Shown one piece after another: positions 24,939 through 37,172 of a stretch of DNA of 64,000 nucleotides. The position numbers and the translations under genes are program-made. The notes beneath the pieces are model-generated. The model saw only the letters and a list, made by a program, of their open reading frames with translations. It had not been told where the DNA came from and searched no databases. Positions within the stretch are counted from its first letter, which is position 1. Each line of letters opens with the position of its first letter. Origin of the DNA: Clostridia bacterium (GTDB lineage Bacteria; Bacillota; Clostridia; RGIG6154); NCBI GenBank assembly GCA_045648505.1, contig JAZROD010000044.1, forward strand, positions 80,995 to 144,994. The letters run 5' to 3'.

Positions 24939-27900
24939 TTATAAATTTCCGTTTATAGGCGAATAAACAGGTTTAATATTTGCGAGTCCGCTAAAGAACA
25001 ACAGTTTATATCCTGTTGCTCCCTCACACTGAAGGGTAACTGTATCGCTGTATGCAGATGTAACAGGAATTGCTTTTGATGCAAGCTGAACCCCTCTCTT
25101 GTTGTATGCTTTTACAATCATAAGGGCACTGTCTTTAACAACCTGTTCGTTAAGATTGATTTCAAGACTTACACCGCTATCTGTCTTTGTTGCCGAAACA
25201 ACCTCTGTTGATGCTAAAGAATATACAGAGAACTTTTTAGCACAGATTATAATACTGTCGCTGTTTACTATGAAATATTCACCATCTGCATTAGGTGTTG
25301 TTGTAAGAGCATCAACACTTCCTTCGTGCATTCTAAAAACTATATAAGAAGCTCTTCCTTTGCTTTCAGCGGGAAGTGCAACCTCAAATTCAAGAAGTCC
25401 TTCTGTTTCGGTTACCTCTTTAGCATTCAGACCTTGCTGCTTTTCGATTTTTATGTCTATATTCTGCACGACCTCATAATCTGTATAGTTTTTCGCCACT
25501 TCATTAGTTATTTCTTCCGGTTGTTCTGCACTTCTTACCAATACATTAACCGTTACCGAATTTACAGTTGTATCTATATAATTTTTATCTTCCTGATCAA
25601 AAGCATTTTCAAGTCCTGCAACTGAAGAAATCAAATTAGTTGAGTCTGCAACTGTGGTTTCCATACGGGTAAAATCAACCGTGCCCAAATCAAAGGTTCT
25701 TCCTGTTAAATCAAGATATACCGATTTTGATAAATAATTGCTGACAAGGGTAGTCATTTGTTTAATACCGCTTCTATAGGTAAACCAAAAGTTTCCGTCT
25801 GCGTCTGTGGTGTATGTACTACCAAGTACATAAACTTCTTTATTTGCGGCAACCTCTCCGTTATATGTAATTTTACCTGTAACTGTAGTGTATGGTGTAA
25901 ATTTAGCATATACTGTAACATCTTCGTCAGGCATAACAGCAGGCGGTAATGGTTCCCAGCCGTTAAACCAATGACCCTCAATAGATGGAGTTTGAGTAAG
26001 GTATCCTATTTTTTCCCCACAACCCACCATCATACTTGCAAACTCTTTTCCGTCTACCATATAGGTTAACTTATGCATATTGATGAAATCAATGCTGTCG
26101 GATACTGTTTGTGTTCTTGTTTCATCATCATTTGCAAAAGTAACATTAACCGACTGATATCCGTGGTTTACAGACGGCAGTACATATGAAACTTTTGGTG
26201 TTATTGGGAAATATGCTCCGTCTTCTATTTTATATTTTGTATAGCCGTTTGCATTAAGAGTTAATGTAACATTTCTGTTTGTTGTCTCAGCATCGCTGTT
26301 GTTAATTACAACACTTGCACTGTAATTTAAAAGTCCGCAAAGTGCCTTGCCGTCCTTTACATAGTATGTTGCATCTTTGCCGTTTAATGCAAGAATATCA
26401 TAATCCCAGTTTTCAAGTTCAAGTTCTGTTACTTCAATACCTTTAAGGTTGTCTATATCTTTAAGTGTTCCACTATCTATGGTAAGAGTATTTTCGTCGG
26501 CATATCCAATGCCTGTAATCTTACTGTAGCCGTTTTTGAATAAAAGTGTTTTGTCTGTTTTTTTATATACAGGTCCGTTCACAGTCCACTCTGTCTGTTC
26601 ATAAAGCTTTACTTCAACTGTATTTGCAGTAAGCAGTGCCATCTGTTCTCTTGTGACGGTACTGTCGTAATCCATAACTATACCCTTCAAAATGCCTGCA
26701 CCGCTTGCTGCTGCCATATATGCTGTAGGGTAATAACCACCATAGTTTTGTGCAACAATTTCATATCCCGTTATTGAAACCAAAACCTTTGCAATCTGTG
26801 CATAGGTCATTTCTGTTTCAACGCCGAATACGCCTGCGCCGTCACCATTTATAACACCTTTGTTGCAAAGATACATAACATATCCGTTAAGGTCTGTTCC
26901 TGTTTGCACATCGCTGAAGTGAGAAGTTGTACTGTTCAATGATTTCGCATATTCTTCTCCACCCGTCATTTTTACAACGATTTCGCAAAGTTCGCCTTTT
27001 GTTATATTGGCTTTAGGGTTATCATAGACATTTGTCATTAAGCCTAAATCGTATGCAATTTTGGCAGACTCCACATATCTTGCATCTGTTATACTGCTTC
27101 TTTCTACCTTTGTAAGCTCTTTTTTGCCCATTAACATACAAAAGTCAGACTTACTCATTTCCTTATTGTTTCTGTTTGAAGGAACTGAATAAACTGCAGC
27201 AACCATCTTTGCTTTTTCTTTATCGTACTTGTTGCTGTTCGAATTGTGCCAGCTTTCTATTGTTGAATTGAAATAATCAATATCAGACTGGTCAACATAT
27301 ATTTTATCGCCTGTGCTGTATTCAACAAGAAGCTGATGATATTCTTTTTCATCATAAGTCAAATAGTATGCAACTGCATAAGATGCAACATTTGAGTCAG
27401 TATTTGTCCATCTTAAAATGTTATCTCCATATGAAAGGTTTGTTGCCTTTGCAACTGTTGGTTTCTTATTGTAATAATATGGACTGCTGTATTGGATATC
27501 ATTGTTAAAATCAAGGTTATCGTCAACAGAGCAAACAGAGAAACGATATTCACCGCTTCCGTGATCTACCATTGAATAAATGAAGTTGTTGTATTCAACG
27601 CCCTGCACATTTTCATAAGGCTCTGTAAAATACCATGTACCGTCAATTTCAACATCATCTTTATAAAGCTTTATGTAATATCCGTCTTCATCGCTTGCAG
27701 GCATAAACTTTATTACACCAATTTCATCGCCCCACTGAAGGTCGCCAAACTCTGTTGGCTCTTCCTCTTCAGGTGTTTCAATAACCGAACCATCCAAAGT
27801 TACATAATCTGAATAAGATGGATTTTTTTCATTAATGTCATAAGTCATTGCGTTAACGGAAATACCTATAATTGCATCTTCAGGATCTAATCCCTCATTC

Positions 27901-28499
27901 TCGGCTTCCCACTCAATATCTTCATAAAGCCACTCAAATTCCGAAGGACCGTCTTCAAAGAAATCAAAATAATTGTCATTTCCCACATCATATGTGCAAT
28001 ATGGATTCATACCCTCGTTTATATCAAAAGTATATCCAAGTACAACTTCGTAAAAATCCGCTCCCTGAACTGCATTCCATGTAACAAGATATTTTTTTGC
28101 ATCAAATTTGATATTAGTTGCTTTTGCAAGTGAAACATTAGGTTTTTTATAAACAAAGTTCTCTGATGACTTAAATGTATACTCGCCATTTCCATTACTT
28201 GAGCCTACTTCAACCCTATATGTACCGCTTCCATTATCAAGAATTTCCTCAAGAAGATAAAGATACAGCTCATCTTCATGATAATTGTCCGTATGATGTG
28301 TCCATTCATCTATAATGCGATTGTCTTTATACACATTAATTCTGTATTCATCAACACCATTTACCAATGTGAACATAAATTCACCTGGATATTCTCCTGT
28401 CCAGCAAACTGTTGCCGGTGCTGTTGCCGCAGATACTGTGAATGTAAGCATCTGCATAAGCATCATTACTGCAATTATAAAACTTAATGCTTTTTTCAT
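24939..28499 (-). CDS. large secreted cell-surface protein with internal duplicated domains and central SLH-like domains
   Basis: Signal peptide MKKALSFIIAVMMLMQMLTFTVSA. Two homologous blocks of about 230 aa (YRINVYKDNRIIDEW... and YYIKLYKDDVEIDGTW...). SLH-like motif HFSDVQTGTDLNGYVMYLCNKGVINGDGAGVFGVETEMTYAQIAKVLV. Confidence 0.6.
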   Translation of the reverse strand: MKKALSFIIAVMMLMQMLTFTVSAATAPATVCWTGEYPGEFMFTLVNGVDEYRINVYKDNRIIDEWTHHTDNYHEDELYLYLLEEILDNGSGTYRVEVGSSNGNGEYTFKSSENFVYKKPNVSLAKATNIKFDAKKYLVTWNAVQGADFYEVVLGYTFDINEGMNPYCTYDVGNDNYFDFFEDGPSEFEWLYEDIEWEAENEGLDPEDAIIGISVNAMTYDINEKNPSYSDYVTLDGSVIETPEEEEPTEFGDLQWGDEIGVIKFMPASDEDGYYIKLYKDDVEIDGTWYFTEPYENVQGVEYNNFIYSMVDHGSGEYRFSVCSVDDNLDFNNDIQYSSPYYYNKKPTVAKATNLSYGDNILRWTNTDSNVASYAVAYYLTYDEKEYHQLLVEYSTGDKIYVDQSDIDYFNSTIESWHNSNSNKYDKEKAKMVAAVYSVPSNRNNKEMSKSDFCMLMGKKELTKVERSSITDARYVESAKIAYDLGLMTNVYDNPKANITKGELCEIVVKMTGGEEYAKSLNSTTSHFSDVQTGTDLNGYVMYLCNKGVINGDGAGVFGVETEMTYAQIAKVLVSITGYEIVAQNYGGYYPTAYMAAASGAGILKGIVMDYDSTVTREQMALLTANTVEVKLYEQTEWTVNGPVYKKTDKTLLFKNGYSKITGIGYADENTLTIDSGTLKDIDNLKGIEVTELELENWDYDILALNGKDATYYVKDGKALCGLLNYSASVVINNSDAETTNRNVTLTLNANGYTKYKIEDGAYFPITPKVSYVLPSVNHGYQSVNVTFANDDETRTQTVSDSIDFINMHKLTYMVDGKEFASMMVGCGEKIGYLTQTPSIEGHWFNGWEPLPPAVMPDEDVTVYAKFTPYTTVTGKITYNGEVAANKEVYVLGSTYTTDADGNFWFTYRSGIKQMTTLVSNYLSKSVYLDLTGRTFDLGTVDFTRMETTVADSTNLISSVAGLENAFDQEDKNYIDTTVNSVTVNVLVRSAEQPEEITNEVAKNYTDYEVVQNIDIKIEKQQGLNAKEVTETEGLLEFEVALPAESKGRASYIVFRMHEGSVDALTTTPNADGEYFIVNSDSIIICAKKFSVYSLASTEVVSATKTDSGVSLEINLNEQVVKDSALMIVKAYNKRGVQLASKAIPVTSAYSDTVTLQCEGATGYKLLFFSGLANIKPVYSPINGNL

Positions 28500-28530
28500 A
28501 AAATCACTCCAAATAAGTTATTTGCTTTAT

Positions 28531-28559
28531 TATACTACAGAAAATGTTTATTTTCAAGC
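28531..28559 (-). promoter_or_regulatory. consensus sigma-A promoter for the surface-protein gene
   Basis: Minus strand reads TTGAAA-17 nt-TATAAT, back-to-back with the plus-strand promoter of hairpin-array copy 1. Confidence 0.5.
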
Positions 28560-28561
28560 TT

Positions 28562-28852
28562 TTTATATTTCTTGCATTTTCTATACCTTTGTGATAAAAT
28601 GATATATTGTTCAGGAGTCGGAATTTATCTAAGTAAATTGCCCTTAGGGCATGAATTGAAATCAGTGATTTCATAAATTGGCGTCACCATGAATTGAGGT
28701 CTGCGACCTCATGAATGAATAAAAATCGCAAAGCGATTTTATCCTTAATGCAAACTTGTTTGCAATTCATGTTGCGAATAGCATCAATTTATTGAGCGAA
28801 AGCGAAAATTCATAACAACGAAGTTGTTAATTATTTTTAAGAAGCATATAAA
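28562..28852 (+). repeat. hairpin-array element family 1, copy 1 (promoter plus about 260-bp repeat, followed by terminator)
   Basis: TTGCAT-17-TGaTAAAAT at 28562-28590. The body has short palindromes (GCCCttaGGGC, GAAATCAgTGATTTC, GAGGTCtgcGACCTC, AAAATCGCaaaGCGATTTT, CAAACttGTTTG) joined by ATGAATT linkers. About 96% identical to the copy at 31216-31497. Confidence 0.7.
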
Positions 28853-28888
28853 TAAAGCAGACAGAAATACTGTCTGCTTTATTTATTA
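28850..28888. terminator. bidirectional intrinsic terminator
   Basis: AAAGCAGACAGaaatacTGTCTGCTTT flanked by A/T runs; closes both copy 1 (+) and membrane gene A (-). Confidence 0.6.
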
Positions 28889-29938
28889 TTTAGTCATAAC
28901 CCATAAATCTACTGGTTCCAAAATAATTTCGCAATCTTTAGCAAAGTTTCCTTTTGTACAAACGGCACACAAATTTGTTTTATTTGAAATTCCTTCAACT
29001 GGCAAAACAAAATATGCACTGCCAACCAATGTTTTATTTTGGTAAATCTTTGCTCTTATTGCACCATCCAAAGACGCATTCTTATATTCTTTCAATAATT
29101 TTTCGACTTCAAAATCAGCACTAACTATCATCGCACTATCGGTATATTCAATCGCAGTTATATTCCCTATTTCTACCTTTTCAAATAATTTTTCAGTGTC
29201 TTCGTCCAAAATTTTCACATTCTGATGTAAATTAGTTTTCATCACATCATATTTTTTCAGTTTGCTTTTTTCTTCATTTATTGAAGCATATATGTTATTG
29301 TTTAAAAAGTTTACAATTGGACCATAAACTGCGTTGTGTTCTCTTACTTTTACATTCTCAGCCTCTGTTTCCAATGCCGTCATTATTCCTGCTACAGGAC
29401 CTGCAAGACCGTTAGCTATTCCTCCCCATGTTGCCCAATTATGTTCTTTTTTTAGAAAAGTATTTCTGTTTCGAGCAACATCCAAGTTTAGTTCAGACAT
29501 ATTTATCTTTGTATATTTTATCTTTCTTTCAAGCATTATTTTGCTTTTTTCTAAACCTCGGTATCCATAACCACACATAGTTTCTTCCAATAGGAAGAAT
29601 TGTTTTTGTCTTTCATCGCTGTTTTCGGCATTTCCTTTTATAAACCCTTCATACAAACAATCTTCAGGCCATTTTTTGTCTACATCAAATATCCCAAAAC
29701 CAATTTTACTTATCAAATATTTATTATAGGCATCCACCGTCACACTTATCATAAATATTAGGGGAGCAAAGAAAAGAATAAGCATAACTATTAAAAATCC
29801 ACCCATATCCAAAAACGACTCTATACCATCTTCAACAAGCACCCCAATCATACTTATAATCCAAAGGATTGAAAACCACCATCCACCTATGAAAGCACCT
29901 TTTTTAGTTCTACTGAAAAAGCAATCTATCCTTTTCAT
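28886..29938 (-). CDS. hypothetical membrane-anchored protein (two N-terminal TM helices plus about 270-aa soluble domain)
   Basis: Track ORF 28886..29977; AAAGGAG RBS before the internal MKRIDCFF start. No recognisable family. Contains WATWGGIANGLAGPVAGIMTALE. Confidence 0.5.
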   Translation of the reverse strand: MKRIDCFFSRTKKGAFIGGWWFSILWIISMIGVLVEDGIESFLDMGGFLIVMLILFFAPLIFMISVTVDAYNKYLISKIGFGIFDVDKKWPEDCLYEGFIKGNAENSDERQKQFFLLEETMCGYGYRGLEKSKIMLERKIKYTKINMSELNLDVARNRNTFLKKEHNWATWGGIANGLAGPVAGIMTALETEAENVKVREHNAVYGPIVNFLNNNIYASINEEKSKLKKYDVMKTNLHQNVKILDEDTEKLFEKVEIGNITAIEYTDSAMIVSADFEVEKLLKEYKNASLDGAIRAKIYQNKTLVGSAYFVLPVEGISNKTNLCAVCTKGNFAKDCEIILEPVDLWVMTK

Positions 29939-29983
29939 GTGCAACTCCTTTACTACTAAAATATCATTATGCATCAATATAAC

Positions 29984-30880
29984 TTAATCATTATCCCCAT
30001 AATATTGTTTATAATGTTCTTTTGTAGCTATAGCATTTATTTTGTGTTGTATTATAATTGCAGGTATAAAAATCCCTAAAAAGATCGAAAGTATAAGTAC
30101 CAGTGCTTTAATATCAGACTGTACTTTCTTTTGGAATGCCAATGTTTCTGTTAATTCCGCTGTTTTATACATCCAATATATGCTATAAAAAGGTACAAAC
30201 CAACACAATAACATTTTTTTAATAGGTGTTCTGTACTCTTTTCCAGTTATATTTAAAAAATATGTAGTTTTGTAAATCCACACACTATAATATATAAAAC
30301 CGAATAACAACCAAAGAATAACAAAGCTAACAAGACTTCTTGAACCACTTTTTATATTCTCCGGTCTGTCAGTGCGTTTAAAATCATTAACCAATGCTAA
30401 AACTGCAGAAATTATTCCGTTTACAATAGTAACAATTGCATCAATTATCACTGGTATAGAAAACACAAATGCAACTATGGCCAATACACAAGATAAAACC
30501 AATGCAACTATTGACAAATTGCTAATCTGATATACGGGCACTAACATATACTGAACTACCGCAATCACACCGCACACAAGACCTAACAAAGGAACCGCGT
30601 TATTATTTCTTTTCCATATTCCAAACACAATTGCTACAATCCCCACAAAGAAAAACAAAACCGGTGTTAAAATTATTTCATTTATATCTGTCATATTTAC
30701 AGTTCTGAAAATGCTCATAACTTGTGAATTTTTTGCCGGAAACCATACATACTGTGCTATAGAAACAGTTTTTCCATTTGCCATTTGCCAAAAAGGCAAA
30801 AACTGAAGAATTATAAGCGCTAAAACCAACCCTGCACAACTTACACTTCCTACCCACATACATTTTTTTAATTTGTTCAT
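29984..30880 (-). CDS. hypothetical polytopic membrane protein with C-terminal DUF4234-like YW repeats
   Basis: GGAGGG RBS before MNKLKK; about 7 TM helices. C-terminal duplicated motif FGFIYYSVWIYKTTYF / FVPFYSIYWMYKTAEL. Confidence 0.5.
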   Translation of the reverse strand: MNKLKKCMWVGSVSCAGLVLALIILQFLPFWQMANGKTVSIAQYVWFPAKNSQVMSIFRTVNMTDINEIILTPVLFFFVGIVAIVFGIWKRNNNAVPLLGLVCGVIAVVQYMLVPVYQISNLSIVALVLSCVLAIVAFVFSIPVIIDAIVTIVNGIISAVLALVNDFKRTDRPENIKSGSRSLVSFVILWLLFGFIYYSVWIYKTTYFLNITGKEYRTPIKKMLLCWFVPFYSIYWMYKTAELTETLAFQKKVQSDIKALVLILSIFLGIFIPAIIIQHKINAIATKEHYKQYYGDND

Positions 30881-30993
30881 AATTACCCTCCGTCTGCGTA
30901 TTACTTTTGTATTACATTCACACATCTTATTGTATCATATAAAACCATTTTATGTCAAGATATAATTTATTACATAATGGAAGGTGTGATAAT

Positions 30994-31176
30994 ATGTTAA
31001 ATGAACCATTAAAAATTAAAAAACGCGGAGAAGATGGAACTAAAATCATTTCTTTAAGAATACGAGAAGACACTCTTGCAGAACTAGATAGACTTTCTAA
31101 CGAATGTAATTATTCACGAAATGAACTTATAAATCTCATAATTAACCACGGAATTAAAAACATTATTATAGAATAA
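30994..31176 (+). CDS. ribbon-helix-helix (CopG/Arc/MetJ-like) DNA-binding protein
   Basis: GGAAGGTG RBS. Encodes MLNEPLKIKKRGEDGTKIISLRIREDTLAELDRLSNECNYSRNELINLIINHG (beta-strand, helix, helix pattern). Divergent from the two membrane genes. Confidence 0.55.
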   Translation: MLNEPLKIKKRGEDGTKIISLRIREDTLAELDRLSNECNYSRNELINLIINHGIKNIIIE

Positions 31177-31215
31177 TTACACAAAGGGCAGTGTTTAAGG
31201 CTGTCCTTTTTTTAC

Positions 31216-31497
31216 TTGCATTTCATATTTATATATGATAAAATATTGTATTATTCAGGAGACGGAATTTATCTAAGTGAACTGCCCTTAGGGCATGAAT
31301 TGAAATCAGTGATTTCATGAATTGGTTTCACCATGAATTGAGGTCTGCGACCTCATGAATGAATAAAAATCGCAAAGCGATTTTATCCTTAATGCAAACT
31401 TGTTTGCAATTCATGTTGCGAATAGCATCAATTTATTGAGCAAAAGCGAAAATTCATAACAACGGAGTTGTTAATTCATTTTATGAAAGGAGTACAT
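31216..31497 (+). repeat. hairpin-array element family 1, copy 2 (promoter plus repeat, directly abutting the yggS RBS)
   Basis: TTGCAT-17-TGaTAAAAT at 31216-31244. Body about 96% identical to copy 1 (about 8 mismatches in about 225 nt). Ends ...AATTCATAACAACGGAGTTGTTAATTCATTTTATGAAAGGAG, then TTG of yggS. Confidence 0.7.
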
Positions 31498-31500
31498 AGT

Positions 31501-32142
31501 TTGAGTATAAAAAGTAATCTTGAAAAGATAAAAAGCACTTTAAACAACGATACTACACTTGTTTGCGTAAGTAAGTATCACACCGAAGAGGAAATTATGG
31601 AGGCTTACAATGAGGGCGTTCGTGATTTTGGTGAAAACAAGGTGCAGGATATGGTTAAAAAGGCGGAAAATCTGCCAAAGGATATAAGATGGCATCTTAT
31701 CGGACACTTGCAGACAAACAAGGTTAAATATATTGTGGGCAAAACCCATCTTGTGCAGTCGGTTGACAGAATTGAACTTGCAGAAGAGCTTAACAAAAGA
31801 TTTGAAAAAGAAAATCTGGTTTGCGACTGTTTAATACAGATAAATTCAACGGGCATTGATTCAAGATTCGGTTGCACACCTGAAACTGCAACAGAATTTG
31901 CAGAAAAATTAAGAGAATTCAAAAGCCTTAATGTTAAGGGAATTATGGGTATGGCTCCAATCTGCGATGACCCTACCGAAAACTTTAAGCTTTTAAAAGA
32001 TATTTATGAAAATTTAAAAGAAAAAGGTATGCTAAACGGTAACATACTCTCTATGGGTATGAGTGATGACTACGAATTTGCACTTAAGTGCGGAAGTAAT
32101 ATGGTAAGAATAGGAAGTAAAATATTCAAGGATGCTGAATAA
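31501..32142 (+). CDS. yggS: YggS-family pyridoxal-phosphate-binding protein (PLP homeostasis; YlmE-like)
   Basis: LSIKSNLEKIK...VCVSKYHTEEEI...GENKVQ...HLIGHLQTNK is the COG0325 signature. TTG start with AAAGGAG RBS preferred; ATG at 31483 is possible. Confidence 0.75.
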   Translation: MSIKSNLEKIKSTLNNDTTLVCVSKYHTEEEIMEAYNEGVRDFGENKVQDMVKKAENLPKDIRWHLIGHLQTNKVKYIVGKTHLVQSVDRIELAEELNKRFEKENLVCDCLIQINSTGIDSRFGCTPETATEFAEKLREFKSLNVKGIMGMAPICDDPTENFKLLKDIYENLKEKGMLNGNILSMGMSDDYEFALKCGSNMVRIGSKIFKDAE

Positions 32143-33460: not shown

Positions 33461-34555
33461 ATGACAAAAATTGATATTTTTTCAGGCTTTTTAGGTGCAG
33501 GAAAAACTACACTTATCAAAAAACTTATTAACGATTCATTCAAAGGCGAAAAGCTTGTTTTGATTGAAAACGAATTTGGCGAAATCGGTATTGACGGTGG
33601 ATTTTTAAAAGAAGCAGGTATTGAAATAACTGAAATGAATTCAGGTTGTATCTGTTGCTCACTTGTGGGTGATTTCAGTAAAGCTCTTGCTGAAGTTCTT
33701 GAAAAATTCACACCTGACAGAATTTTAATCGAACCATCAGGGGTTGGAAAATTAAGTGATGTTAAAAAGGCAGTTGAAGGTATTGAAGGTGCAAAAATCA
33801 ACAGTGCAACTGCAGTTGTTGACGCCACAAAGTGCAAAATGTATATGAAAAACTTCGGCGAATTTTTCAATGACCAGATTGAAAATGCATCAACCATTAT
33901 TTTAAGCCACGCAGACAAAGCATCAGAAGAAAAAATTAAAGAATGTATTCATCTTATAAAAGAACATAATGAAAAAGCCGTTCTTGTTACAACTCCTTTT
34001 ATGGAGCTTGACGGCAAGGTGCTTAAAGATGCTATTGAAAACACATCAACTCTTGAAAAAGAAATGGAAGAACTTGAGCATCATCACCACCATCACGGTC
34101 ACGATTGCCATTGTCACGAGCATGAACACGAGCATCATCACCACCATGATGAAGAATGTACTTGTGGTTGCCATGAACACGAACATCACCACCACGATGA
34201 ATGCGATTGTGGTTGTCATGAACATCATCACGAACACGGTGAAGAATGCTCCTGCGGATGTGGCGGACATCATCACCACCACGCTGATGAAGTTTTCACA
34301 AGCGTTGGTATTGAAACTGCAAAGAAATTCACTAAAGAAGAAATGGAAAGTATTCTCGAAAAACTTTCAAAAGAATCTGAATACGGACTTGTGCTTCGTG
34401 CAAAGGGTATTGTTGCCGGTGAAGAAGATTGGATTCACTTTGACTATGTTCCCGGCGAAGCAGATGTTCGATTCGGCTCAAAAGATGTAATCGGCAGAAT
34501 TTGTGTTATCGGTTCTGAAATTAACAAAGAAAAAATTCAAAAATTATTTGACTGA
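33461..34555 (+). CDS. COG0523 (CobW/ZigA-type) G3E GTPase metallochaperone with long His/Cys-rich insertion
   Basis: Walker A GFLGAGKTTLI, CxCC motif GCICCS, and a 75-aa insert HHHHHHGHDCHCHEHEHEHHHHHDEECTCGCHEHEHHHHDECDCGCHEHHHEHGEECSCGCGGHHHHH. Confidence 0.8.
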   Translation: MTKIDIFSGFLGAGKTTLIKKLINDSFKGEKLVLIENEFGEIGIDGGFLKEAGIEITEMNSGCICCSLVGDFSKALAEVLEKFTPDRILIEPSGVGKLSDVKKAVEGIEGAKINSATAVVDATKCKMYMKNFGEFFNDQIENASTIILSHADKASEEKIKECIHLIKEHNEKAVLVTTPFMELDGKVLKDAIENTSTLEKEMEELEHHHHHHGHDCHCHEHEHEHHHHHDEECTCGCHEHEHHHHDECDCGCHEHHHEHGEECSCGCGGHHHHHADEVFTSVGIETAKKFTKEEMESILEKLSKESEYGLVLRAKGIVAGEEDWIHFDYVPGEADVRFGSKDVIGRICVIGSEINKEKIQKLFD

Positions 34556-35520: not shown

Positions 35521-35556
35521 AAGAAACGGTTGAGAATTTTCTCAACCGTTTTTTGT
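35521..35556. terminator. bidirectional intrinsic terminator
   Basis: AACGGTTGAGAattttCTCAACCGTT-ttttt. Confidence 0.6.
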
Positions 35557-36933
35557 TATATTGGAAATCCACACTTCTTTTTTGACAAGTATTGCTCCAA
35601 CAATACATTTTACAATTTCCATTGAGTGACATATAAAATAAACCGTAAAAATATTAAGCTCTGTAAATCTTGACAAACAGTATGCAACCGGTACTGCAAC
35701 ACCCCATGTATAACCCGAATCAAACAAAAATGTTATACCTGTTTTACCGCCTGAACGGATGGTAAAATATGTTGAGTGACACATTCCATACAAAGGCATA
35801 CATATTGCCGACATCAGAATAAACACTCTTGCAAGATTTTTCACTTCTTCTGTTGTGTTATAAGCTCTCGGGAAAACCGATGAAAGCAGTGCCATTATAA
35901 TGCCTATTGCCACGCAAAGAGCTGTGGAAAATGCAATAAGCTTTGGTGCACTTTCTTTTGCTTCTTCAAATTTTTCTGCCCCAAGCATCTGCCCAAGCAG
36001 AACTGCAATTCCCGAACCAAGTGCTATAAAGGTAACATTAAAAAGATTTACTACTGTTGTTGAAATGTTAAGTCCTGCCACAACATCAATTCCTCTTAAT
36101 GAATAACATTGTGTAAGCATAGCCATACCTGCTGCCCATAATGTTTCATTTAAAACAAGAGGAACAGTCCCTTTTAAAAGCATTCTTTTTGCAAGGGCAG
36201 ACGGTATCTTCATACTGCGGTAAAGTCCTTTGGGGAATATAAGTTTATTTCTGTTTATATGTGTCCATCCGATTACAATAAAAATCTGTATGTATCTTGA
36301 AATAACGGTTGCAATCGCCGCACCCACAACACCCATTTCAGGGAATAATCCCACACCGAAAATAAGCATCCAGTTTAAAAATGTGTTTGTTATAACCGCA
36401 ACAATACCCGCAATCATAGGCAGAGTTGTGTTTCCGCTTTCTCTCAATGTGCTTGAATACGCCTGCTCAAAAGCAAATGCAAGATTACCTATAAGCATTA
36501 CCCCCATATAGCTTTTGGCACTTTCAAAGGTTTTCGCAAGGTCTATCCCTTTTTCCGCATCGTGAAGGTATGAACTTATGAGTCCGTCTCCCAAAGTGAG
36601 AAACAAAACCGTACCTGCAATTGTTATTGTTATTGCGGAAATTATCTTAAAACGGAAAGAGTTTCTTACTCCTTCATTATCACCCCTGCCAAAAAACTGT
36701 GCACAAAATATTCCTGCACCTGAAACTGCACCAAATACAGCTAAATTAAACACTAAGAATATCTGATTTATTATGGCAACGCCGGACATCTGCTCTGTCC
36801 CTACCTGCCCCACCATAATATTATCTATCATAGCAACAAAGTTTGTTATTAAGTTTTGTATCAGTACAGGTATGGCAATCATCAATATTTTCTTATACAG
36901 TGATTTTGTACCTATCAAGCTTTTCACATTCAT
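35542..36933 (-). CDS. MATE-family efflux transporter
   Basis: 12-TM protein with N-terminal ILMIAIPVLIQNLITNFVAMIDNIMVGQVG. Start taken at MNVKSL. Confidence 0.8.
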   Translation of the reverse strand: MNVKSLIGTKSLYKKILMIAIPVLIQNLITNFVAMIDNIMVGQVGTEQMSGVAIINQIFLVFNLAVFGAVSGAGIFCAQFFGRGDNEGVRNSFRFKIISAITITIAGTVLFLTLGDGLISSYLHDAEKGIDLAKTFESAKSYMGVMLIGNLAFAFEQAYSSTLRESGNTTLPMIAGIVAVITNTFLNWMLIFGVGLFPEMGVVGAAIATVISRYIQIFIVIGWTHINRNKLIFPKGLYRSMKIPSALAKRMLLKGTVPLVLNETLWAAGMAMLTQCYSLRGIDVVAGLNISTTVVNLFNVTFIALGSGIAVLLGQMLGAEKFEEAKESAPKLIAFSTALCVAIGIIMALLSSVFPRAYNTTEEVKNLARVFILMSAICMPLYGMCHSTYFTIRSGGKTGITFLFDSGYTWGVAVPVAYCLSRFTELNIFTVYFICHSMEIVKCIVGAILVKKEVWISNITKNG

Positions 36934-36980
36934 ATTAACACCCTTAAAAAAGTTGTGCAACAAAAGTTGCACAACTTCAA

Positions 36981-37172
36981 TCAGTCTATTTTTTCAATTT
37001 TAATTCTTCCGTTATTATAATCAAATTCATTAACTGTTTTAAGGTATGCAGGGCCTTTATAAGTTAAGAAATATTTGCCAACATATTCAATTACGCCTTC
37101 TTCAACAGAGGCTCCGTTGCCTTTTACGATAACCTTATCGCCTTTTTGTAATTTAATATTAAATTCTGCCAT
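36981..37172 (-). CDS. small hypothetical protein (63 aa)
   Basis: AAAGGAG RBS before MAEFNIKLQKGDKVIVKGNGASVEEG...; terminator GTTGTGCAACttttGTTGCACAAC downstream. Confidence 0.35.
   Translation of the reverse strand: MAEFNIKLQKGDKVIVKGNGASVEEGVIEYVGKYFLTYKGPAYLKTVNEFDYNNGRIKIEKID

Follow-up and report, generated by a model that had tools for sequence, protein, structure and literature searches.

A strain-variable cassette in the yggS leader

A block of 2,875 nt at positions 28618-31492 of a 64,000-nt stretch of contig JAZROD010000044.1 from an uncultured gut Clostridia bacterium (the window) lies between the ribosome-binding site (RBS; AGGAG) and the start codon of the gene yggS and is extra DNA compared with L015, the nearest relative. 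From left to right, the block consists of a hairpin-rich core (core1), a terminator, gene A, gene B, a pair of divergent promoters, the gene of a small ribbon-helix-helix (RHH) protein, its terminator, a further copy of the promoter and RBS of yggS, and a second core (core2). The promoter and RBS of the host gene lie directly left of core1, so that a direct repeat of 281 nt brackets the cargo. Taken as a whole, this arrangement is probably best explained by an insertion in the yggS leader followed by recombination at the repeat, the cargo being mobile accessory DNA repressed by the RHH protein.

Relatives were found by a genome search with the YggS protein. L015, a contig of a Clostridia metagenome-assembled genome (MAG), encodes a YggS with 91% amino acid identity to that of the window, and its flanks are 88-92% identical at the nucleotide level. 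The order in L015 is the 5' end of the gene of a surface protein with SLH domains, its upstream region, a promoter (TTGCAT...TGATAAAAT), TTCAGGAG, the 8-nt stretch ATGATAAA and the ATG of yggS; nucleotide comparison found both core and cargo missing from this leader. The host gene in the window, a YggS-family pyridoxal phosphate-binding protein outside the cassette (31488..32142, plus strand, including the leader end), has AGGAG, an 8-nt spacer and a TTG start at 31501. Cutting out core2 together with one AGGAG recreates the L015 layout of AGGAG, 8 nt and start codon. The yggS leaders of four more distant relatives (L016-L019) are also short, and the core was not found in their loci by blastn or nhmmer. 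The GC content is 0.31-0.32 inside the block versus about 0.36 in its surroundings. These comparisons support a strain-variable insertion in the 5' leader of a chromosomal housekeeping gene. An earlier note on this DNA had proposed an insertable accessory cassette of three genes enclosed by a repeat pair; the cassette gains support from the empty site in L015, from the lower GC content and from a second genome, described below, with the same repeat junctions.

The sequence AGGAG is present on both sides of core2 (31257-31261 and 31488-31492), on the left side only of core1, and once in L015. The pair around core2 looks like a 5-bp target duplication, and selection for an RBS or deletion microhomology would look alike. 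The opposite history, in which the cassette is ancestral at this locus and L015 arose by a secondary deletion, was also considered. Loss of the DNA from one AGGAG (28613) to the other (31488) would give the exact L015 leader; however, the leaders of L016-L019 are short and have neither core nor cargo, the GC content of the cargo is below that of its surroundings, and recombination between the long repeats should leave one core, of which L015 has none. An ancestral cassette is thus improbable, and an insertion in the yggS leader is preferred.

The repeat pair

The repeat copies (28563-28843 and 31207-31487) are 281 nt each, in direct orientation and 91% identical, in agreement with the flanking repeat pair that had been noticed before. 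The 30-mer CATGAATTGAGGTCTGCGACCTCATGAATG is present twice versus 0 expected, indicating that the pair is not due to chance. Each copy consists of a left part of 55 nt, corresponding to the yggS promoter and RBS, and a right part of 226 nt, the core. The left part contains TTGCAT, 14 nt, TGATAAAAT, about 12 nt and TTCAGGAG. In copy 1 (28563..28617, plus strand; read by eye), TTGCAT is located at 28572-28577, TGATAAAAT at 28592-28600, and TTCAGGAG ends in the AGGAG at 28613-28617. In copy 2 (31207..31261, plus strand), which is 93% identical to its counterpart in the second genome, the same elements are located at 31216-31221, 31236-31244 and, for the AGGAG, 31257-31261. Between the two copies, the promoter stretch (28563-28608) agrees at 33/46 positions and the TTCAGGAG stretch (28609-28617) at 8/9, giving 41/55 in total. 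Up to and including its -10 box, copy 1 is contiguous and orthologous with the promoter at the empty site of L015. The promoter in copy 1 was not listed by the consensus scan because its -35 box is weak and it depends on an extended -10 box. The promoter in copy 2 presumably now drives yggS.

Core copy 1 (28618..28843, plus strand, 226 nt) is followed on its right by GCATAT and the terminator of gene A, a junction that recurs in the second genome. Core copy 2 (31262..31487, plus strand, 226 nt) has AGGAG on each side and now forms the 5' leader of yggS. These are the only core copies within the window, and both flank the cassette. The two cores are 91-99% identical to each other along their length: the central 113 nt (28688-28800 and 31332-31444) agree at 112/113 positions, the core flanks at about 91% and the promoter parts at 72%. 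This gradient suggests that gene conversion or a recent crossover may have been limited to the centre of the repeat.

The hairpin-rich core

Short perfect stem-loops line up along the core, with loops of mostly 3 nt (TGCCC-TTA-GGGCA, AAATCA-GTG-TGATTT, GAGGTC-TGC-GACCTC, AAAATCGC-AAA-GCGATTTT, TGCAAAC-TT-GTTTGCA and AACAAC-GRA-GTTGTT). In its left half, the motif CATGAATTG lies between stem-loops, and its complement CAATTCATG is present in the right half; all 7 exact copies of the motif or its complement in the 64 kb are inside the two cores. Pairing of CATGAATTG with CAATTCATG could form nested helices carrying the hairpins as side branches. Compared with shuffled sequence, the predicted folds of the core are more stable, with z scores of -2.3 (plus strand) and -4.2 (minus strand).

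These features raise the possibility that the repeat is a functional structured RNA, with copy 2 acting as a cis-regulatory yggS leader, copy 1 as a small RNA of about 280 nt, and the cargo between them only incidentally. A plus-strand promoter (TTGCAT-N14-TGATAAAAT) is located directly upstream of the core in both copies and in the second genome, copy 1 is succeeded by a terminator, the fold of the core is a hairpin series with left-half motifs complementary to those of the right half, and a comparison of the two genomes by eye found the stems mostly retained and the loops variable. However, the minus strand folds no worse than the plus strand, and the repeated pairing motifs could pair in many different registers, an unusual trait in a functional RNA. 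No Rfam family matched at gathering scores in the whole window, and a permissive search of 31180-31520 (E up to 10) returned nothing better than chance level (E ≥ 0.85). The core is missing from the yggS leaders of all five relatives (5/5), and in 1.41 Mb of fetched related loci, blastn and nhmmer found it in the second genome alone. An exact 23-mer of the core had 0 matches in 185,579 species genomes, the JGI metagenomes and IMG/VR (collections that do not include the source genome), and the whole element had no blastn match among PLSDB plasmids and INPHARED phages. Three core sequences are known in all. A functional structured RNA is therefore regarded as rather unlikely, and the repeat is better read as a consequence of insertion and recombination.

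Small open reading frames (ORFs) in the core were rejected as genes, as they differ between the copies (for example, 28504-28674 on the minus strand encodes 56 aa, its counterpart in copy 2 28 aa). Integron attC sites, IS200/IS605 ends, an oriT and a plasmid origin were considered and not formally tested; no integrase, TnpA, relaxase or Rep was seen. A type III toxin-antitoxin system, in which a repeat RNA is followed by a toxin gene, was rejected, the downstream genes being on the opposite strand.

A second version of the cassette

The second genome is represented by L001, a 1,678-nt Logan contig from another sample, which was located via P0002, a relative of gene A with 68% identity; gene A has just two close relatives among 5.8 billion protein clusters. 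L001 begins with the right part of the core, the junction of GCATAT with the terminator, a gene A homologue and 284 nt. Next come the divergent promoter, the RHH gene and its terminator, promoter copy 2 (93% identical), TTCAGGAG and the left part of the core. The inner junctions on either side of the cassette are thus confirmed independently, and two genomes are known to have the element. L001 ends within the core at either edge, as would happen if that genome, too, had a repeated core.

Gene B is absent from L001. In L001, the 284 nt stand in place of segment 29726-30928 of the window, which spans the operon's 5' untranslated region, the entire gene B and about 70 codons at the start of gene A; the breakpoint of this variable segment coincides exactly with the -10 box of the B-A promoter. 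With the presence or absence of B, the N-terminal membrane anchor of A has thus been swapped as well. The conserved unit is core, gene A, RHH gene, promoter copy and core, with gene B optional. The nucleotide identity between the window and L001 is about 85% in gene A (28886-29725) versus 98.7% in the RHH gene (30952-31176), which together with its terminator and the promoter copy forms a block of 93% identity. The RHH proteins are 100% identical, the 3 nucleotide differences all being synonymous. This uneven divergence suggests recombination within the cassette; the contrast between the RHH gene and gene A may reflect either a mosaic history or unusually strong constraint on the regulator and promoter segment.

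The three ORFs proposed in the earlier note were recovered, each with an RBS. The three-gene module did not hold up as a conserved unit, since L001 lacks B and A-family genes have other partners elsewhere; homologues of B never adjoin A-family genes, their contexts being unrelated housekeeping genes. A and B are accordingly not an obligate or coevolving pair. Two findings that would have counted against an accessory cassette were looked for: no homology of A or B to housekeeping families was found, and the relative that has the genes, L001, also has the flanking repeats. Three aspects escaped the first reading, namely, the copy of the promoter and RBS in each repeat, the insertion between the RBS and the start codon of yggS, and the large family to which gene A belongs.

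Gene A and its family

Gene A (28886-29938, minus strand) encodes a protein of 350 aa, with an ATG start after the RBS AAGGAG, and consists of two N-terminal transmembrane (TM) helices and a conserved domain. A longer ORF that contains it has a TTG start and reaches 29977; this start is less likely than the ATG. The gene is terminated on the minus strand by a bidirectional intrinsic terminator (28848-28886) with a 17-bp stem, which would also end a plus-strand transcript of about 280 nt begun at promoter copy 1. The hydropathy scan showed two N-terminal peaks, which are also helices in the AlphaFold model, and no family was found for A in Pfam, NCBIfam, PHROG or PADLOC, in keeping with the initial description of a protein with two TM helices and no recognisable family.

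A set of 1.84 billion cluster representatives (50% identity) was searched with a profile built from A, P0002 and P0003. The A family comprises at least 835 cluster representatives at E ≤ 1e-3, including 576 at E ≤ 1e-10, and all matches cover the C-terminal 240 or so residues. No Pfam domain was detected on this region in 61 sampled members (0/61), a PDB sequence search with the profile gave no match, and the family was not found in IMG/VR. These searches indicate a large, unannotated family with neither a Pfam model nor a solved relative. Positions that are invariant or nearly so are K131, K164, E165, W168, GG172-173, A175, G177, G180, A183, G184, N195, R199, N202, DG291-292, G306, P313, G316 and W346. 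Gene A satisfies the signature of its family (E165, W168, GGIAxGxAGPxAG, N195, R199, N202, DG291-292, G316 and W346), and its domain carries the motif KEHNWATWGGIANGLAGPVAG; the glycine-rich helix GGIAxGxAGPxAG is strictly conserved in the family. Longer members have a polytopic N terminus in place of the two TM helices and share a WPEDC motif with A.

An AlphaFold model of A from a 31-sequence alignment had a mean predicted local distance difference test score (pLDDT) of 84.3, exceeding 90 across most of the conserved domain; a model from 3 sequences (pLDDT 39.6) was not used. In the former, the two N-terminal TM helices are followed by a helical stretch and by the glycine-rich helix (168-179), with P181 as the site of a kink; a helix of 60 residues and a beta-sandwich (243-349) come next. 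It had no convincing structural match. The positive-inside rule predicts a cytoplasmic location for the conserved domain.

Neighborhoods of A-family genes

The neighbors of A-family genes were clustered at 38 loci drawn from a metagenome scan and homologue look-ups. A small serine recombinase (Resolvase, PF00239) was found near the A-family gene at 11/38 loci, a multi-TM protein with a SHOCT-like tail directly downstream of it at 9/38, and a small Xre-type helix-turn-helix gene, divergent and directly upstream, at 6/38. An 86- to 100-aa coiled-coil protein was present at 6/38 loci and a DUF6809 protein at 5/38; a MobA/MobL relaxase and a type IV secretion system coupling protein were each present at 1/38. 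The resolvase genes lie within a few genes of the A-family genes (loci L005, L006 and L095-L132), often together with Xre, DUF6809 or coiled-coil proteins. Control by phase variation or in the manner of a shufflon, or transport on small mobile elements, could account for this proximity. A small divergent repressor next to an A-family gene is a recurrent layout in which the repressor family varies (RHH here, Xre elsewhere). At locus L005, a 394-aa partner gene upstream of the A-family gene (502-1686) ends in GGCYVATAVYGSYDCPEVWTLRRFRD and has no Pfam match on record. A conserved pair of A and a B-like protein was considered and dropped, as the downstream multi-TM protein and the B family share the SHOCT tail only, which is absent in B itself.

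A is thus a gene of variable or mobile regions without a specific link to defense. That the RHH protein, B and A form a dedicated membrane-acting antiphage, abortive-infection or immunity system, the kind of function that the earlier note had offered along with stress, is unlikely, and none of the tests supported any of these functions. The cargo is a strain-variable accessory with a small repressor and membrane proteins, A-family genes occur in variable or mobile contexts, and a few of these loci are near HEPN-like, MADS, ThsA-like or PD-T4-6-like genes. However, A, B and the RHH protein had 0 matches in PADLOC-DB 2.0 at E up to 1, and the PADLOC matches among the 137 proteins neighboring A-family genes are scattered, single cases. 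Conservation does not link A with B, IMG/VR yielded no member of the A family, and the surroundings of the cassette are housekeeping genes rather than a defense island. The parallel statement, that A and B resemble no known transporter, toxin-antitoxin or defense family, holds.

Gene B

Gene B (29984-30880, minus strand; RBS GGAGGG) encodes a polytopic membrane protein of 298 aa with a C-terminal DUF4234 domain. Residues 196-241 match Pfam DUF4234 (PF14018) in two stretches with 27.4 bits, above the cut-off of 25.3 (E 3.7e-6), and the translation holds the duplicated YW motifs FGFIYYSVWIYKTTYF and FVPFYSIYWMYKTAEL; the resemblance to DUF4234 that had been suspected is thereby placed above the Pfam threshold. 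Seven TM helices had been counted at first. The polytopic nature is borne out, with six clear peaks in the hydropathy scan, and two weaker segments seen by eye bring the number to about 7-8. The C-terminal 100 aa share invariant W, Y, P, F, Y, Y, W, Y and K columns with 10 homologues. The closest homologues have only the DUF4234 part in common with B and usually carry a SHOCT tail. DUF4234 proteins are commonly fused to SHOCT; B differs in having no SHOCT domain and an idiosyncratic N-terminal TM bundle. DUF4234 is listed for an Enterococcus faecalis gene whose transposon mutant formed less biofilm (PMC6753144).

The regulator and its control region

The RHH gene (30994-31176, plus strand; RBS GGAAGG) encodes a 60-aa Arc/CopG-like protein and is followed by an intrinsic terminator detected by the terminator scan (31183-31209, plus strand). 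An alternative start at 30952, giving 74 aa, has no RBS and falls within the -35 box of the opposing promoter. The protein matched Pfam RHH_1 with E 0.02 and 15.3 bits, below the 20.5 cut-off, and PHROG 5118 with E 4.6e-6; the Arc-like and CopG-like repressor PHROGs gave 1e-3 to 1e-4, below curated thresholds, and all NCBIfam matches were below their cut-offs. A PDB sequence search gave no match. A strand-helix-helix pattern was recognised by eye (KIISLRI / EDTLAELDRLS / SRNELINLIINHG). The identification as an RHH regulator is thus probable on the basis of this pattern and the subthreshold profiles, and no profile reached a curated threshold.

The promoter of the B-A operon (30958..30929, minus strand) is of the sigma-70 type, TTGACA-18-TACAAT with an upstream TG, and matches 11/12 consensus positions; it was the top-scoring site of the region in the consensus scan and is kept in L001. 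The divergent promoter described at the outset is confirmed in these details. The heptad [GT][TA]ATTAC occurs four times on the plus strand within 30880..30973 (at 30880, 30898, 30909 and 30967) and is a candidate operator for the RHH protein. The 126-nt control region holds 4 heptads versus 16 along the entire plus strand of the 64 kb; as the pattern was picked after looking, its nominal P (4e-8) overstates the enrichment. Two of the heptads are 11 nt apart, just downstream of the transcription start of the B-A operon, and this spacing would suit cooperative binding of RHH dimers. In L001, the shared heptad copy is kept, and one copy is in inverted orientation.

RHH domains are common as the DNA-binding domains of antitoxins, and a type II toxin-antitoxin-like pair was therefore weighed, with the RHH protein as antitoxin and autorepressor, A as a membrane-damaging glycine-zipper toxin and B as a possible helper. 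The strictly conserved glycine-rich helix of A would fit such a toxin, and the RHH protein has a weak match to the BrnA-family antitoxin of NCBIfam (E 1.5e-3), far below the cut-off. However, its 60 aa amount to the DNA-binding domain without a C-terminal toxin-binding extension, and its gene is divergent from A and B with a terminator of its own, rather than part of a bicistronic operon. Most A-family genes have Xre, other or no regulators, and A and B match no toxin family. Such a pair is considered highly improbable, and control of accessory cargo by a small repressor remains the preferred interpretation. The protein resembles the Arc/Mnt/CopG repressors in being a 60-aa strand-helix-helix protein encoded beside overlapping face-to-face promoters with short repeated heptads; unlike for those repressors, the score is below the RHH_1 cut-off and DNA binding is a prediction here.

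Comparison with known mobile elements

Repeat-bracketed mobile cargo is already known as a kind. In IS26 pseudo-compound transposons and translocatable units, the cargo lies between direct copies, and a circle with one copy enters at a resident copy (PMC4196232; PMC4676283). The cassette is similar to the IS26 units (Harmer, Moran and Hall 2014) in that its cargo lies between two direct copies of one element, from which release by recombination of the repeats is possible. It differs in that its repeats are 281 nt, noncoding and without terminal inverted repeats, and encode no transposase, by which the IS26 units are recognised. In addition, part of each cassette repeat is a host promoter and RBS, and a circular form of the cassette is hypothetical.

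Tn3-family elements make 5-bp target duplications. TIME-COMPs are composites bounded by two Tn3-derived miniature elements (PMC4133298; PMC13367494). Shared with them are the two short nonautonomous elements around the cargo, the 5-bp repetition of AGGAG around core2, which may be a target duplication, and the resolvases near A-family genes elsewhere. In contrast to TIME-COMPs, the core has no 38-bp Tn3-type terminal inverted repeats, one copy only has the duplication, the cassette copies are direct, and there is no resolvase match in the window. The core accordingly lacks the terminal inverted repeats that define MITEs (miniature inverted-repeat transposable elements; for a general review of those of prokaryotes, see PMC10969869) and the Tn3-derived miniature elements. 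Its first and last 15-38 nt give 1-8 matches, and the best local inverted alignment of its ends was equalled by 70/500 shuffles.

BOX, RUP, ERIC and REP/BIME are dispersed hairpin-rich intergenic repeats of Firmicutes and enterobacteria. The core is comparable to them in being short and noncoding, with modular stacked stem-loops in a transcribed intergenic leader. It differs from them in sequence, without similarity, and in its distribution, with two copies in 64 kb that both flank one cassette.

Neighboring genes and other strain differences

The flanking genes that were annotated or read between 1 and 39 kb of the window are housekeeping or sporulation and germination genes, including mreB, ssb, yggS, apgM and a COG0523 GTPase; GerA-type proteins were recognised by their translations. 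The SLH-domain surface protein of 1,186 aa beside the cassette (24939-28499, minus strand) is lineage specific: in L016 and L017, yggS and mreB are about 200 nt apart, and L015 has a diverged version (73-83% nucleotide identity). About 4 kb from the cassette, a 1.45-kb indel (35537-36984; ORF 35542-36972, minus strand) interrupts the otherwise collinear alignment with L015. A transposase was considered for this indel and rejected: it is a MatE-family efflux transporter gene, absent from L015. No repeats or mobility genes were seen around it. The CobW/COG0523-type GTPase (33461-34555, plus strand) has a His/Cys/Glu-rich insert of about 90 residues (HHHHHHGHDCHCHEHEHEHHHHH...). A second CobW-like gene, fused to DUF1980_C, comes next, suggesting that the two serve metal (zinc) homeostasis as a pair. 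A tRNA/tmRNA scan found none, and exact-protein look-ups of gene A, ApgM and SSB for other strains returned none on record.

Proposed history and role of the cargo

In the proposed history, the 226-nt core would have landed first in the yggS leader, duplicating AGGAG. Cargo DNA with its own promoter, RBS and core would then have recombined with the resident copy, giving direct repeats on both sides, through a single crossover if the incoming DNA was a circle or a double one if it was linear. Promoter copy 1 is nearest L015 up to and including the -10 box; beyond it, copy 2 agrees better with L015, at 13-14/17 positions versus 10/17 for copy 1. This mosaic fits a single crossover near the -10 box and lends it weak support. 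As a consequence, promoter copy 2 would keep yggS transcribed and, with core2, give it a leader of about 250 nt, and promoter copy 1 would now read core1 into the bidirectional terminator. The RHH protein would repress the overlapping divergent promoters, probably via the ATTAC heptads, and in this way control the B-A operon. This operon would yield two inner-membrane proteins, with A anchored by its two TM helices and its conserved domain facing the cytoplasm.

Several points weigh against this history. No recombinase, transposase or relaxase is present among the cassette genes, and a tblastn search of the whole 64-kb window with one resolvase gave no match, no other search for mobility genes having been made. 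The genes annotated or read between 1 and 39 kb of the window include no mobility gene either. The outer junctions (promoter copy 1 with core1, and core2 with yggS) are known from this MAG-derived window alone. The absence of terminal inverted repeats from the core belongs here as well, and with three core instances in all, the label of a mobile element hangs on the single AGGAG duplication. AGGAG is the RBS itself, so that its repetition may come from selection rather than target duplication, and a deletion via the same microhomology could have given L015. The history does not account for how the first repeat-cargo-repeat arrangement came about, and RHH repression, the role of the heptads as operator, A's topology and any phenotype are predictions. 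That the genes are real is supported by an RBS on each, by the exclusively synonymous changes in the RHH gene, by the 835 clusters of the A family with their conserved motif and by the confident model of A (pLDDT 84.3).

Our best guess for the cargo is an accessory membrane-acting function on mobile DNA. As to its nature, a role in exclusion, competition or defense is possible and tentative, another envelope or membrane role is equally so, and the rest is left unassigned. A more far-reaching interpretation is that the core is a novel nonautonomous mobile element without terminal inverted repeats, which inserts at RBSs, duplicates AGGAG and carries or recruits a promoter by which the interrupted gene remains expressed; that pairs of it capture and move cargo by recombination; and that A founds a large, undescribed family of membrane-anchored mobile-element effectors in gut Clostridia, silenced by small repressors. 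This combination of claims is speculative and, as it stands, unlikely to be correct in full. The locus is a solid lead rather than a discovery.

If insertion and recombination at the repeat are the true history, accessory genes of gut Clostridia would be movable by paired short, noncoding, hairpin-rich repeats without any enzyme. Such repeats would enter the translation initiation region of an essential-type gene without silencing it, as a promoter copy is brought along and the RBS is preserved. The empty site, the version with the RHH gene and A, and the version with the RHH gene, B and A form a natural three-state series. Gene A opens a large membrane-anchored family, characterised by a glycine-rich helix and a beta-sandwich and recurrent beside resolvases and small repressors.

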